Below the pieces are notes generated by a model, which was not told the DNA's origin, did not search any database, and saw nothing but the letters and a program-made list of their open reading frames with translations. A stretch of DNA of 12,370 nt from Promethearchaeota archaeon. GTDB lineage: Archaea > Asgardarchaeota > Hermodarchaeia > Hermodarchaeales > Hermodarchaeaceae. Location: the NCBI GenBank assembly GCA_048938295.1, contig JBHLMI010000045.1, positions 1-12,370 on the forward strand, given 5' to 3'. The translations under genes were made by a program, and so were the position numbers. Each line of letters starts with the position of its first letter. Positions within the stretch are counted from its first letter, which is position 1. Below, in pieces: positions 1 through 3,495 of this stretch.

Positions 1-342
1 CTGGAACCAGTGCACAACCTGTCAAAGGATAAGGTCTTTGATCAGCGGCTAGCGAAGGCTCGAAGGATCTTTGCTGCTTTATCCAAGCAAAAACCCACCG
101 CCCAAGACCTAATGCCCCTCGTTGAATATTTCCATGGCATCGAAATACAGGTAGGGGCTCTGCGCTGCCCTAAGTGCCATAGGTGGTTTCCAATTGGATC
201 ACGAGTGGAGACAATTCCTGAATTATTACCGGACGCTGGACGGGATAAAAACGCGGATGTGGCGTTTCTCCGGAAGTATCGTGACGTGCTTCCTGACGCG
301 ATTTTAACTGGCTCTAAACCCTTCGTTTTGGAAGAAGCCTAG
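1..342 (+). CDS. Trm112-like protein (methyltransferase activator family), 5'-truncated by the window edge
   Basis: Frame is open from base 1 (CTG GAA CCA GTG), so the GTG at 10 is probably internal. C-terminal half pattern EIQVGALRCPKCHRWFPI...IPELLPD...D..FL.K...LP..IL...KP matches archaeal Trm112-type proteins. Stop TAG at 340-342. Confidence 0.7.
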   Translation: MEPVHNLSKDKVFDQRLAKARRIFAALSKQKPTAQDLMPLVEYFHGIEIQVGALRCPKCHRWFPIGSRVETIPELLPDAGRDKNADVAFLRKYRDVLPDAILTGSKPFVLEEA

Positions 343-356
343 TTGAGAGTACAGAT

Positions 357-369
357 TAGCAGAATCCTT
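357..369 (+). repeat. 13-bp direct repeat, left copy (TAGCAGAATCCTT)
   Basis: Exact match to 1656-1668, read directly. Followed by GGG at 370-372. Confidence 0.97.
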
Positions 370-373
370 GGGC

Positions 374-381
374 TTTTTATG
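374..381 (+). promoter_or_regulatory. TATA-like box (TTTTTATG) upstream of tnpB; could also be an oligo-T terminator for the Trm112-like gene
   Basis: Centred about 26 nt upstream of the GTG at 403, the spacing expected for a leaderless archaeal transcript. No Shine-Dalgarno before 403 and the adjacent BRE position is non-consensus. Confidence 0.35.
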
Positions 382-402
382 TCCACTTGTTGACGAAAAG
401 TT

Positions 403-1641
403 GTGAAAGCTGGAAGTAAGTCACTAATTATCTATCGTGGATATAAGACGGAGTTGAAATTAAATAATCACCAGAGAAACCTTTGTAGAAGACACGCGGG
501 ATTTGCTAGGTTTGCTTATAATTGGGGTTTACAAAGGAAGATTGAGGAATATGAAAAAACTGGAAGCTCTCCCACTGCATTTACTTTGAGTAGGGAACTG
601 AACAGGCTTAAGCTTTCTGAATTTTCTTGGATGTATGAACTGTCAAGTCGTGTTCCCCAAGAAGCATTCAAAAATCTGGATTTCGCGTTCAACCAATTCT
701 TTCGTCGTATAAAAAAGGGTAAAAAACTAGGATTCCCAAAATTCAAAGCACGCAAATGTGGACTCGGATCCTTCCGGTTAAACGGAGTAATCCGTGTGTC
801 TGAAAATGTTATCCAATTGCCCCGACTTGGTAGGCTTCGGTTAAAAGAAAGAGGCTATTTACCCTCCGAGTCAAATCGGATACATATTCTTTCAGCAACC
901 GTCTCGGAGAAAGCAGGTCGTTGGTTTGTTTCCCTACAAGTTCGAGAAGAGATTTCTCCAGAACAAAGCAGTGGTCCAGTAGTTGGTGTTGATGTTGGGC
1001 TCCGCCATTTAGCAGTACTTTCTGATGGCACCTTCTTCGATAATCCAAAGGCATTGAGTCAGAAGGAACGGAAATTGAAGCAGGTACAAAGAAAGCTTGC
1101 AAAGAAGCTGCGTGGAAGTAATAATTATCAGAAGCTAAAACTCAAACTACAAAGAATCCATAAAAAAATTGCAAACATTCGAAAAGATGCTATTCACAAA
1201 ATAACAACCCGACTGGTGAAAACCAAATCAGTCATAGTTATTGAGGGACTTAATATTCGCGGACTAACGAAAAATCATTCAATAGCAAAGGCAGTTTCAG
1301 ATGCGAGTTTCCAAGAGTTTCGACGCCAACTCGAATATAAAACGGTCTGGTATGGATCTAATCTGATTATTGTGCCTTGGTCTTTTCCATCGTCAAAGCG
1401 ATGTTCCAAATGTGGAAAAATCAAGAAAGAGTTACCTCTATCTTCACGGATTTACGAATGCAAGTATTGTGGATTAACTATGGATCGTGATTTGAATGCT
1501 AGTAAAAACCTAGCATTAGTCGCCGCCAGTTGGTCGGAGACAATAAACGCTTGTCTAGAGGTGGGAGGTTACAGATCCATTGGATCAGTGCCCATCAATG
1601 ATGCAAGAACCGAACACCAATCAAAAAACTTGAAAGGGTAA
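403..1641 (+). CDS. tnpB: RNA-guided endonuclease TnpB (IS607-like), 412 aa
   Basis: N-terminal YKTELKLNNHQR...HAGFARFAYNWGL, PKFK motif, RuvC-I VGVDVG, RuvC-II VIVIEGL, zinc finger CSKC...CKYC, RuvC-III DRDLNASKNL. All three acidic catalytic residues present, no frameshift. Confidence 0.95.
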   Translation: MKAGSKSLIIYRGYKTELKLNNHQRNLCRRHAGFARFAYNWGLQRKIEEYEKTGSSPTAFTLSRELNRLKLSEFSWMYELSSRVPQEAFKNLDFAFNQFFRRIKKGKKLGFPKFKARKCGLGSFRLNGVIRVSENVIQLPRLGRLRLKERGYLPSESNRIHILSATVSEKAGRWFVSLQVREEISPEQSSGPVVGVDVGLRHLAVLSDGTFFDNPKALSQKERKLKQVQRKLAKKLRGSNNYQKLKLKLQRIHKKIANIRKDAIHKITTRLVKTKSVIVIEGLNIRGLTKNHSIAKAVSDASFQEFRRQLEYKTVWYGSNLIIVPWSFPSSKRCSKCGKIKKELPLSSRIYECKYCGLTMDRDLNASKNLALVAASWSETINACLEVGGYRSIGSVPINDARTEHQSKNLKG

Positions 1642-1671
1642 GATTCGGGCAACGGTAGCAGAATCCTTTTA
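1495..1671 (+). ncRNA. Predicted TnpB omegaRNA/reRNA: scaffold to 1655 plus guide from 1656
   Basis: Established: TnpB guide RNAs derive from the element's right end plus 3' flank and overlap the end of tnpB. Seen stems: 1495-1502/1510-1517 (8 bp), 1574-1578/1582-1586, 1561-1565/1591-1595, 1610-1614/1644-1648. The 5' and 3' limits are approximate. Confidence 0.7.
1656..1668 (+). repeat. 13-bp direct repeat, right copy (TAGCAGAATCCTT)
   Basis: Starts at the first base after CAACGG and is identical to 357-369. Confidence 0.97.
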
Positions 1672-1674
1672 TAG
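1659..1674 (+). promoter_or_regulatory. Archaeal BRE + TATA promoter (CAGAATCC TTTTATAG) for the r-protein operon
   Basis: Purine-rich AGAA directly upstream of TTTTATAG, the only good TATA box before rpl22. Predicts a start near 1696-1697, coinciding with the 5' end of the leader stem. Confidence 0.65.
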
Positions 1675-1695
1675 TGTTGGGGGTTTGACTTCCTC

Positions 1696-1804
1696 GCTCT
1701 CACATTGTTTGGGAGTGCGGATCAGCGCCGAGGGTTCTTGGAATTCTCGTTCTTGCTGCTGCAACCTGCAAAGTGAGTGTTTTCAATCCCAGAGATGATA
1801 CCCT
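1696..1804 (+). promoter_or_regulatory. Putative structured 5' leader of rpl22 (candidate r-leader)
   Basis: Hand-folded: closing stem 1696-1708/1768-1780 with two mismatches, arms 1715-1718/1725-1728, 1729-1737/1741-1749 (9 bp) and 1753-1756/1761-1764. Confidence 0.45.
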
Positions 1805-2266
1805 ATGCCCAACTACGGCTATTCGATCATTGGTCTGGATCCCGATAAAACCGCCCGGGCTAGCGGACGCGAGGTTCACATGTCTCCCAAGGCTGCTCGA
1901 GAAATCTGTAATGAGCTACGGGGACTCCGCCTTGAAGCCGCCAAAACCTACTTGGAAGAGGTCATCGCCATGCGCCAGGCGGTGCCTTACCGTCGGCACG
2001 ACGGACAAGTGGGGCATCGCAAGGGACTGCGTAAGGCTGATTCTGGACGGTACCCTGTGAAAGCATCCAAAGAGATCCTGCGTGTGATAGCCAACGCCGA
2101 GAATAACGCCGATTACAAAGGCTTAGATCTGGATCGGCTGCGAGTCACGCATATCTCAGCGTATCCGGGTCGGGTCAATAAACGCTTCGTACAACGGGCG
2201 CGGGGACGGTCAACTAAGTATAATGAGCAATTAGTCCATGTTGAGGTCGTCTTAACGGAGGAATAA
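1805..2266 (+). CDS. rpl22: 50S ribosomal protein L22 (uL22), archaeal type
   Basis: SPKAAREIC...GL.LE.A..YLEEV....AVPYRRH...VGHRKG...GRYPVKA; RARGR motif. Confidence 0.97.
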   Translation: MPNYGYSIIGLDPDKTARASGREVHMSPKAAREICNELRGLRLEAAKTYLEEVIAMRQAVPYRRHDGQVGHRKGLRKADSGRYPVKASKEILRVIANAENNADYKGLDLDRLRVTHISAYPGRVNKRFVQRARGRSTKYNEQLVHVEVVLTEE

Positions 2267-2268
2267 TC

Positions 2269-3495
2269 ATGCCAGCTGAAGATCATTTCATTAATCGAGG
2301 ACTGTTGAAAGTTAAAGTGAACGATTTTCTTCGCCAGGAGCTTCGACGTGCGGGTTATGCTGGCGTAGACCTTCAGAAAACTCCGCTCGGGATGCGAGTC
2401 GTCGTCTATGCTGCACGTCCTGGAATGGTTATTGGTCGACGTGGGATAACGGTTCGGGAGCTCACAGAAACTCTTGAACACGATTTTGGTCTTGAAGCAC
2501 CGCAAATCGAAGTCAATGAGGTGGAGGTCCCCGAACTCAACGGACCCATAATGGCAGAACGGTTAGCCCAACGCCTTGAGCGGGGTGATCATTTCCGTCG
2601 TGCGGCCTACGGTGTTCTTCGTCGTATCATTCAGACAGGGGCAAAGGGTGTCGAAATCTCCCTCGCTGGCAAGCTTACCAGCCGTCGTGCCCGGTATCAG
2701 AAATTCCGCAGCGGCTTCGTGGCCAAGACTGGTGAACCGATACGAACTGCGGTGAGTCATGGGTGGGCTTATGCTGTAATGAAACCGGGAGTCTTAGGAG
2801 TTCAAGTCCGCATCATGCTACCGGATACTGTTGCTCCGGATCATCCTGTTATCGTCCATCGGGAAGTGGAAGTTCAAGCAGTTCCTCCTCCTATCCCCAA
2901 AGCCGCAGAAATCGAAATCATCGAAGAAGAACTCCCCTTAGAAGAAGCTCCCTCAATCGAAGAGTTTGTGGAAGAAGATATGGAACCGGCTCCTGAATCG
3001 GTCGAGCCAAAAACCCCTGTGACCCCTGAGGGCGAACCAACCTCTAAGGCCTCCCCTGAACCTGCTCCAGAAGCCCCACCCGCCGAAGAAAAACCTGCAC
3101 CCGAAAAACCAAAGCCTAAACTCAAGGAAGAACCCAAAGCTGAACCTCCCAAGAAAAAGGCACCTGAAACGCCCAAGGAAAAACCGAAGCCAAAGAAAGA
3201 AGTAGCCAAGGAGAAACCAAAGGCTAAGAAGGAAACGGCAAAGCCGAAACCTAAAGCCAAGCCCAAAACCGAACCGAAACCCAAGGCAAAGGCTAAGACT
3301 GAGCCTAAGAAGAAGGTGGAGGAGAAACCAAAGGCTAAGGCGAAGCCAAAGGCAGCTAAAGCTGAAGAAAAACCCAAGGCCAAAGTGGCAAAGAAGCCGA
3401 AGACGGAGAAACCTACTGAGAAGGAAAAGAAGACGAAACCCAAAGCGGCAAAGGAGAAGGCTTCGAAATCCAAGAAGGAGTCCTCAAAGAAGTGA
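2269..3495 (+). CDS. rps3: 30S ribosomal protein S3 (uS3) with ~210-aa low-complexity C-terminal extension
   Basis: KH domain ARPGMVIGRRG and C-domain HFRRAAY...GAKGVEI..AGKL...RAR within aa 1-~197, followed by acidic then Lys/Pro/Ala-rich tail. Confidence 0.97.
   Translation: MPAEDHFINRGLLKVKVNDFLRQELRRAGYAGVDLQKTPLGMRVVVYAARPGMVIGRRGITVRELTETLEHDFGLEAPQIEVNEVEVPELNGPIMAERLAQRLERGDHFRRAAYGVLRRIIQTGAKGVEISLAGKLTSRRARYQKFRSGFVAKTGEPIRTAVSHGWAYAVMKPGVLGVQVRIMLPDTVAPDHPVIVHREVEVQAVPPPIPKAAEIEIIEEELPLEEAPSIEEFVEEDMEPAPESVEPKTPVTPEGEPTSKASPEPAPEAPPAEEKPAPEKPKPKLKEEPKAEPPKKKAPETPKEKPKPKKEVAKEKPKAKKETAKPKPKAKPKTEPKPKAKAKTEPKKKVEEKPKAKAKPKAAKAEEKPKAKVAKKPKTEKPTEKEKKTKPKAAKEKASKSKKESSKK
3209..3339 (+). 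repeat. 20-nt exact in-frame direct repeat in the rps3 tail (AGGAGAAACCAAAGGCTAAG at 3209-3228 and 3320-3339)
   Basis: Read directly. Copies are 111 nt (37 codons) apart and both encode EKPKAK. Confidence 0.9.

Follow-up and report, generated by a model that had tools for sequence, protein, structure and literature searches.

A recent tnpB-only insertion in an Asgard archaeon duplicates 13 bp of its target and probably arrived by a route other than the known IS607 mechanism

The window analysed here, which is the first 12,370 bases of contig C15, comes from a metagenome-assembled genome (MAG) of a Hermodarchaeota (Asgard) archaeon with 66 contigs, 2,519,385 bases and an estimated completeness of 91.6%. 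Near its start, an IS607-type element with tnpB as its only listed open reading frame within 357-1668 is located between the 3' part of an upstream gene and the L22/S3 ribosomal-protein operon (Table 1). The upstream gene has a weak match to a Trm112-like zinc ribbon (Pfam PF03966, E 4.6e-4) that falls below the cut-off. A 13-bp segment of the intergenic spacer is found on both sides of the element. This repeat, the alleles that lack the element, and related insertions in other genomes indicate that the element probably moved by a second route, other than the known mechanism of its family.

Table 1. Features of the tnpB insertion and its surroundings, in window coordinates.
Feature	Position	Strand	Basis and remarks
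Upstream gene, 3' part	1..342	+	Open reading frame list; left flank of the insertion, with homology to relatives that extends to ...ACAGA(C/T)
Left copy of the 13-bp target-site duplication, TAGCAGAATCCTT	357..369	+	Single copy in empty alleles
Short left end of the element	370..402	+	Begins with GGG like the canonical left junctions of the family; TATA-like TTTTTATG at 374-381
tnpB, 412 amino acids	403..1641	+	Pfam PF12323, PF01385, PF07282; PDB match 8H1J
Right end, predicted omega-RNA scaffold	1500..1655	+	Terminates ...GGGCAACGG at 1655
Right copy of the 13-bp duplication, first 13 nt of the predicted guide	1656..1668	+	Exact repeat; right end set by paralogues
Native promoter-like segment of the L22/S3 ribosomal-protein operon	1656..1674	+	Stretch like a B-recognition element (BRE) plus TTTTATAG at 1667-1674
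Ribosomal protein L22 gene, first of the downstream operon	1805..2266	+	Pfam PF00237, E 1.3e-24

The two copies of the 13-mer match without a mismatch and are the only exact copies in the whole genome, for which base composition predicts 0.09; the repeat is far beyond chance. The right end of the element is fixed by nine paralogous copies, in which homology stops sharply after ...(G/A)CAACGG, as it also does in tnpB-less remnants of this genome and of related ones. Because all paralogues lose similarity at this point, the window element ends at 1655, and the right copy of the 13-mer begins at the very next base. The left copy is separated from the tnpB start by 33 nt, the first three of which are GGG. 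The TATA-like box of the left end precedes the GTG start of tnpB by 22 nt and may act as its promoter. In a sequence search, this 33-nt left end has no homologue elsewhere, and no terminal inverted repeats join the two ends. The element thus spans 370-1655, and excision of 1299 bp yields ...ACAGAT TAGCAGAATCCTT TTATAG. A preliminary description of this DNA, made from its letters, had placed the exact repeat at these two positions, the second copy directly after the ...CAACGG end and the first in the gap before tnpB, and had predicted that deletion would leave a clean spacer; the genome-wide count and the paralogues bear out these placements, and the predicted spacer exists as an assembled contig.

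Contigs from four public runs of one sediment study were aligned to window positions 1-2400. The junction evidence consists of assembled contigs, in which circle junctions and rare tandem alleles are invisible. In the probable source sample, the assembly opens into a bubble from ~324 to ~1708. The filled path is a 1385-nt contig with a depth of 23.5, and the other path is an 86-nt empty-allele contig with a depth of 7.6 that joins 356 straight to 1656, such that the 13 letters fit either side and a single 13-mer is present. The empty and filled haplotypes also differ by a SNP. A 10,956-nt contig of a second sample covers 117-2400 with both repeats, and small contigs of two further samples cross the left junction (244-409 and 124-395) and the right junction (1619-1757). 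In eight genomes of the same genus, the flanks of which are 68-84% identical, the orthologous spacer reads ...ACAGAC TAGCAGAATTCTTATATAGG. Apart from species-level differences, this is the empty form: the segment is present once, and neither edge has a GG. Since the co-existing empty allele and these eight relatives hold a single copy, one 13-mer is the ancestral state and the duplication belongs to the insertion, which is real, recent and still polymorphic. Of the checks that had been proposed for this locus, the search for an empty allele came out in favour of a duplication made on insertion, with the arrangement 13-mer-GG-13-mer seen in none of these alleles, and the two junctions proved to be covered in independent samples. 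As a separate observation, the contig of the second sample carries 12 differences within 80 bp of the upstream gene (window 147-225) and is otherwise nearly identical; this cluster looks like a recombination tract between strains.

The window does start at a contig end of a fragmented MAG, and an assembly or binning artefact could in principle produce a repeat of this kind. The chance of this is negligible: the independent assemblies of four samples cover the junctions, one contig spans the element with both repeats, and an assembly graph built with k=31 is not misled by a repeat of 13 bp, which is shorter than its k-mer.

The encoded TnpB contains helix-turn-helix (HTH), OrfB_IS605 and Cys4 zinc-ribbon domains, and its alignment with ISDra2 TnpB (8H1J) is end to end (E 4.5e-66). 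Based on the aligned RuvC Asp/Glu/Asp motifs and the Cys4 ribbon, which is in place, the protein is apparently an intact and active RNA-guided nuclease. Assignment to the TldR-type nuclease-dead TnpB repressors was considered and rejected, as these are recognized by the loss of RuvC catalytic residues, and here the Asp/Glu/Asp residues align with those of active TnpB. The predicted guide of the window element covers a promoter-like segment, a TldR-like trait, in combination with intact nuclease motifs. The right end (1500-1655), the predicted omega-RNA, is 74-84% conserved in paralogues and in tnpB-less mini-elements. It matches no Rfam family, and its single-sequence fold is not better than that of shuffled sequences (z -1.06).

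The nearest transposase-bearing relatives are about 10 copies in Ktedonobacter racemifer (L075-L097), which are 2.2 kb long and 98% identical to each other and encode a TnpB with 49% identity to that of the window. Upstream of tnpB, these copies have a 210-amino-acid Resolvase-domain open reading frame. They terminate in ...GAGAACGG and start after (R)GGG, with a T as the first base beyond the junction, and flanking repeats are present at none of nine different sites. Because these relatives with a Resolvase tnpA share the termini of the window element (...CAACGG on the right, GGG on the left), land at GGG and make no duplication, the family is of the IS607 type. IS607 transposition proceeds by a serine-recombinase crossover at GG without target duplication (PMC6188088), and ISXfa1, which has an IS607 TnpB, uses GGG as its target-adjacent motif (TAM) (PMC10711439). 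The window element agrees with the IS607 description in its crossover GG and in having a TnpB with an OrfB_IS605 RuvC and a zinc ribbon next to a right-end omega-RNA. It departs from that description at the target, where the empty form (ACAGAT-13-mer-TTATAG) has one copy and no GG and the filled form has two copies, and in the transposase, as no serine-recombinase TnpA was found in cis or in trans in the 19 incomplete MAGs searched.

Most insertions in Hermodarchaeota that can be compared with empty sites are canonical. In the following examples, the junction is given by the last letters before the element. L003 (G000:C33) follows GAAGAGG and is flanked on the right by AGAC..., and L002 (G000:C7) follows GTGGG, upstream of a gene that we take to be a thermosome gene. 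L034 follows CCGGGG and has the right flank ACTCACCC; its imperfect flanking repeat of 19-25 nt was rejected as a duplication, since the empty site (G009:C90) already has both copies, and the insertion is a canonical one at GGGG. The L006 mini-element has its junction between CCAGG and G. Finally, the G006 mini-element L013 (G006:C30), of ~270 bp, consists of a left end and an omega-RNA scaffold, lacks tnpB, follows AAGGGG and continues from CAACGG into CACAGAC. L013 is present in the same L22-promoter spacer of another species and ends 7 bp upstream of the orthologue of window position 357; this spacer has therefore been hit at least twice by the family.

Several further observations concern the distribution of the family. 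One MAG of the sister genus (G016) contains at least 10 tnpB copies at 74-84% identity and at least 10 solo omega-RNA right-end fragments, and no resolvase gene was found in it. The L006 mini-element (G000:C3:29480-29768, L006:1361-1642; 280 bp) contains TAGCAGCTAATCCTTTTTAG in its left end; the genome has just four sites that differ from the window's target TAGCAGAATCCTTTTATAG by no more than 3 edits, and this is one of them. The right flank of the mini-element, TACTGTAATCCTT, shares 9 of 13 positions with the 13-mer. The pairs L009 (G011:C49)/L017 (G001:C14) and L039 (G006:C76)/L208 (G012:C26) are orthologous insertions in species whose flanks are only ~70% identical. Far closer relatives (flanks 91-93% identical) have precisely empty sites, and the pattern therefore reflects precise loss or repeated insertion at the same site.

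A profile search for Resolvase (PF00239) found none in the genome of the window and in 18 other genomes with the family, which are incomplete MAGs (72-92%) and leave the absence unproven; a search of the window's own genome for the Y1 transposase (PF01797) was also negative. The window element is single-copy in its genome. No near-identical donor was found among genome, metagenome and viral contigs, the own genome and 60 relatives; because the best match anywhere searched reaches 72% in DNA (67% in protein), the element comes from an unsampled donor. Taken with the alleles, these searches bear on a rival explanation in which an ordinary IS607 insertion would have used the GG of a 13-mer-GG-13-mer that already existed. 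Each junction does have ...GG at the edge of the element, the expected product of a GG crossover, and L034 demonstrates that repeat-like flanks can pre-exist in a target. Given the single-copy and GG-less sequence of the same-sample empty allele and of all eight relatives, together with the lack of a detected resolvase in 19 genomes, such an event is very unlikely, and it would require two unrelated rare events. The preliminary description had offered it as the alternative, against which these alleles now argue. As the needed target is present in neither the co-existing empty allele nor the relatives, it is well supported that the element did not arrive by the serine-recombinase GG crossover of its family. 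A true target duplication made by a non-canonical route is likewise well supported.

At 68 distinct insertion sites of the family, a copy of the right flank was sought upstream of tnpB (at least 12 of 14 matches; control, shuffled pairings), and such a match was present at 3 of 68 loci versus 2 of 668 shuffled pairings (permutation test). Of these three, L169 matches by chance within the tnpA coding sequence. At L048 (G016:C12, sister genus), the empty sites of three genomes read ...GAG ACTAAAC(G/T)GG(T/C)T TGAAG. The filled site reads ...GAG ACTAAACTGGC, followed by 173 bp, the element, and CAACGG ATTAAACTGGCT TGAAG, which corresponds to a duplication of 11-12 bp. In the 173 bp, an enoyl-CoA hydratase gene is represented by its 5' end, which lies on the opposite strand (58% identity, E 1e-12), together with the spacer upstream of it. 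This donor spacer ends in ...AAGGTAAGGG, a junction of GGG with the left end, and is directly followed by the true left end of the element, which is homologous to that of the paralogue L278. The native hydratase locus is now empty, with ...AAGGTAAGGG joined to TTAGCAAG. Since the hydratase fragment and the donor junction precede its left end, the L048 insert is a copy made at a canonical donor site that brought 173 bp of the left flank with it, which a resolvase would not do. For L045 (G018:C110), the sequence without the element, found in G016:C153, is ...AAGG TGAAGAAATAA GAGCC. In the filled form, (G)AAGAAATAA occurs on either side of the insert and the right copy directly adjoins CAACG(G), which gives a duplication of 9-10 bp. 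The extra left segments of L045 and L048 have no homology to each other.

The window, L048 and L045 insertions thus share an exact right boundary, a left boundary that differs between them, a duplication of 9-13 bp and a target without GGG. Directly preceding the duplication are the tetranucleotides AGAT, AGAG and AGGT, respectively; canonical sites have RGGG in this position, and the right end of the element itself has ACGG. The pattern was spotted post hoc in only three cases. The check that had been proposed for other copies of the family, whether each has its own flank-specific repeat, is negative for most copies and positive for L048 and L045, both compared with empty sites. At L009 and L039, which are at canonical GG sites, the right flank is similar to the initial 10-14 nt of the left end (9/10 and 10/14). 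Relative to their empty sites, the flank alignments overlap by 12 and 16 nt, and both loci were left out of the duplication count. The right flank of L278 resembles the left-end consensus. These resemblances may be decayed duplications or a preference for targets that are like the left end.

Three further explanations were considered. In a Campbell-type integration, a circular or linear form that already carries the 13-mer, as a captured guide flank or as part of its own promoter-like left end, would recombine with the 13 bp of the host as an att-like core. The inserted 1299 bp can be written as GG-element-GG-13-mer, the repeat length is variable (9 to 13 bp), and the left-end resemblances at L009 and L039, as well as TAGCAGCTAATCCTTTTTAG in the C3 mini-element L006, would fit such a form. 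Against it, the genome has no further copy of the 13-mer, the inferred donor right flank of L048 (TTAGCAAG...) is unlike the duplicated target, and the window repeat lies outside the GGG left junction; a circle junction was also not seen among the contigs, which could not have revealed one. This explanation is possible and on the whole unlikely.

Mobilisation in trans by a duplication-making enzyme that is encoded elsewhere or unbinned, such as a DDE transposase, a casposase or a Cas1-type integrase, is improbable. Duplications of 9-13 bp would fit the size made by some integrases. In addition, published work (PMC10691335) places TnpB, in DDE-associated branches, inside elements with inverted repeats and target duplications. 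The window element has no terminal inverted repeats, however, the duplication length varies (13, 11-12, 9-10 bp), and a variable left boundary is paired with a right boundary that is in every case the IS607-type CAACGG. For the absence of inverted repeats and the unfixed duplication length, classification as a DDE-type insertion sequence with tnpB as cargo was rejected as well.

An RNA-mediated copy, in which a guide-paired tnpB-omegaRNA transcript would be reverse-transcribed at the target as in target-primed reverse transcription, would account for the exact right end at the scaffold/guide boundary, the 5' flank of L048, possibly the short left end in the window, and the 9-13 bp duplications. 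It is nonetheless highly improbable: a profile search found no reverse transcriptase domain (RVT_1) in the 91.6% complete genome, the insert includes the TATA-like box upstream of its own likely start site, and the donor flank of L048 is unlike its target.

Our preferred reading, to which we assign a probability of roughly 60%, is that a tnpB-only IS607-type element was recently inserted at the GG-less promoter site of the L22 operon, with duplication of 13 bp of the target, by a TnpA-free route through break or nick repair. The target would be opened by nicks or cuts of the two strands ~13 nt apart (9-13 nt across the cases), or by a nick whose 3' end primes repair synthesis. A copy of the element that ends exactly at the omega-RNA scaffold/guide boundary would then be synthesised or ligated in, and filling or annealing would leave the target segment on both sides. 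The left boundary would not be fixed, being the GGG of the left junction in the window and a point 173 bp out in the donor flank in L048. For duplication-type insertions in general, repair of a break or nick that copies the element appears to be the most likely mechanism, with a staggered break and repair synthesis or end joining as its presumed steps, and TnpB is possibly involved as the maker of the nick at a near-cognate TAM. Consistent with a TnpB nick, the start of the duplicated segment coincides with the place expected for a TAM-adjacent target, TnpB-type nucleases cut at a distance close to the length of this segment, and the preceding bases include a TAM-like AG. The fully specified version is a tentative one that we consider doubtful: TnpB-omegaRNA would nick or cut next to a near-cognate TAM (AGAT/AGAG/AGGT), and repair would copy the donor to the scaffold/guide boundary and to a variable point on the left, with duplication of the 9-13 bp between TAM and cut. 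If true, this version would constitute a second, nuclease-driven transposition pathway, a possible reason for the persistence and mobility of TnpB elements without a transposase in Asgard archaea.

Several points weigh against repair of a break as the route. We know of no enzyme that makes 9-13-nt staggered breaks in such a setting, and the targets carry AGAT, AGAG or AGGT and not the RGGG of canonical sites, so that cutting by TnpB there is hypothetical. The window element has no donor, which makes a comparison of the donor guide with the 13-mer impossible, and the inferred donor right flank of L048 is unlike its new target. In addition, three duplication-type cases stand against about a dozen canonical ones, and MAGs often miss plasmids and viruses, such that a tnpA or other transposase acting in trans is possible. 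The preliminary description had suggested arrival independent of TnpA, by repair of a TnpB-made break near guide position 13 or by integration of a circle carrying element plus guide. A non-canonical arrival that is probably independent of TnpA holds, and the two specific routes were not shown: the break near position 13 is not established, with a target of AGAT and without the canonical GGG, and the L048 donor flank argues against the circle, barring intermediate hops. The same mismatch led to the rejection of guide-directed retargeting.

The location of the insertion relates to its tolerance by the host. The 1656-1674 segment is conserved as TAGCAGAATTCTTATATAGG in the eight relatives and, based on motif and conservation, is the putative promoter of the L22/S3 operon. 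The duplicated segment is the BRE-side half of this promoter-like segment, and a complete BRE/TATA-like promoter remains before L22. That the operon retains a complete promoter probably explains why an insertion in an essential spacer is tolerated. As a separate observation, all three full-length family copies in this genome (L002, L003 and the window copy) are positioned directly upstream of BRE/TATA-like boxes, with the gene at L003 following AGACTTTTTAAGG; their predicted guides therefore cover core promoters. Further downstream, the leader CGCTCTCACATTGTTTGGGAGTGCGG (window 1690-1730), between the promoter and the L22 start, is kept in all relatives and has no Rfam match; it may be a ribosomal-protein leader or a regulatory RNA. 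The S3 open reading frame at 2269-3495 encodes 408 amino acids, of which the KH and S3_C domains are confined to the first 182 residues, followed by a long C-terminal extension.

TnpB genes are far more numerous than the transposases that go with them, and this case bears on the open question of how elements with tnpB alone keep spreading. Here, a natural population has been caught with both a filled and an empty allele, the duplication lies beyond the IS607 mechanism, and no transposase of the family was detected in the lineage. Two insertions in the sister genus have the same signature, one of them with donor flank, and taken together these cases make a transposase-independent route directly testable.

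Among known systems, the IS607 family (H. pylori IS607, ISXfa1 and the Ktedonobacter copies) is alike in its ...AACGG right terminus and in drawing the guide from the right flank. These elements insert canonically at (R)GGG without duplication, whereas the window copy has no tnpA in the element, in its genome or in the 18 relatives searched, and occupies a GG-less site with a 13-bp duplication, of which IS607 is reported to make none (PMC6188088). The IS1341 group of tnpB-only IS200/IS605 elements and the ISDra2 module are alike in their tnpB-only make-up and in a closely related TnpB with the RuvC triad and zinc ribbon. They differ in that IS200/IS605 elements have TTGAT and hairpins at their ends and target, while the window element has IS607-type GG/GGG, and they make no duplications (PMC13565253). 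Membership in this group was rejected because PF01797 has no hit in the genome, a duplication is present, and the transposase-bearing relatives carry a resolvase and not Y1.

The TnpB-assisted homing reportedly described by Meers et al. in 2023, in which the empty donor site left by excision is cut and repaired from a sister copy, would share the nuclease, the guide and repair synthesis by the host. Homing restores an element precisely at its old site, whereas the window insertion occupies a new site that lacks the canonical TAM and has duplicated part of its target. LINE-type (long interspersed element) target-primed insertion is a functional analogy only, alike in its exact 3' end, its variable 5' end with flank and its variable duplication; the window element is a relative of DNA transposons, and no reverse transcriptase was found in its own genome. 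The DDE-associated TnpB elements and Fanzor2, which is found in eukaryotic cut-and-paste transposons (PMC10711439), differ from the window element in that the latter has no terminal inverted repeats, a variable duplication and left boundary, and an IS607-type omega-RNA right end. They are alike in that an RNA-guided nuclease gene is flanked by a target duplication. The host of the window element, an Asgard archaeon, belongs to the lineage nearest to the eukaryotes, in which Fanzor nucleases are likewise carried by duplication-making transposons.

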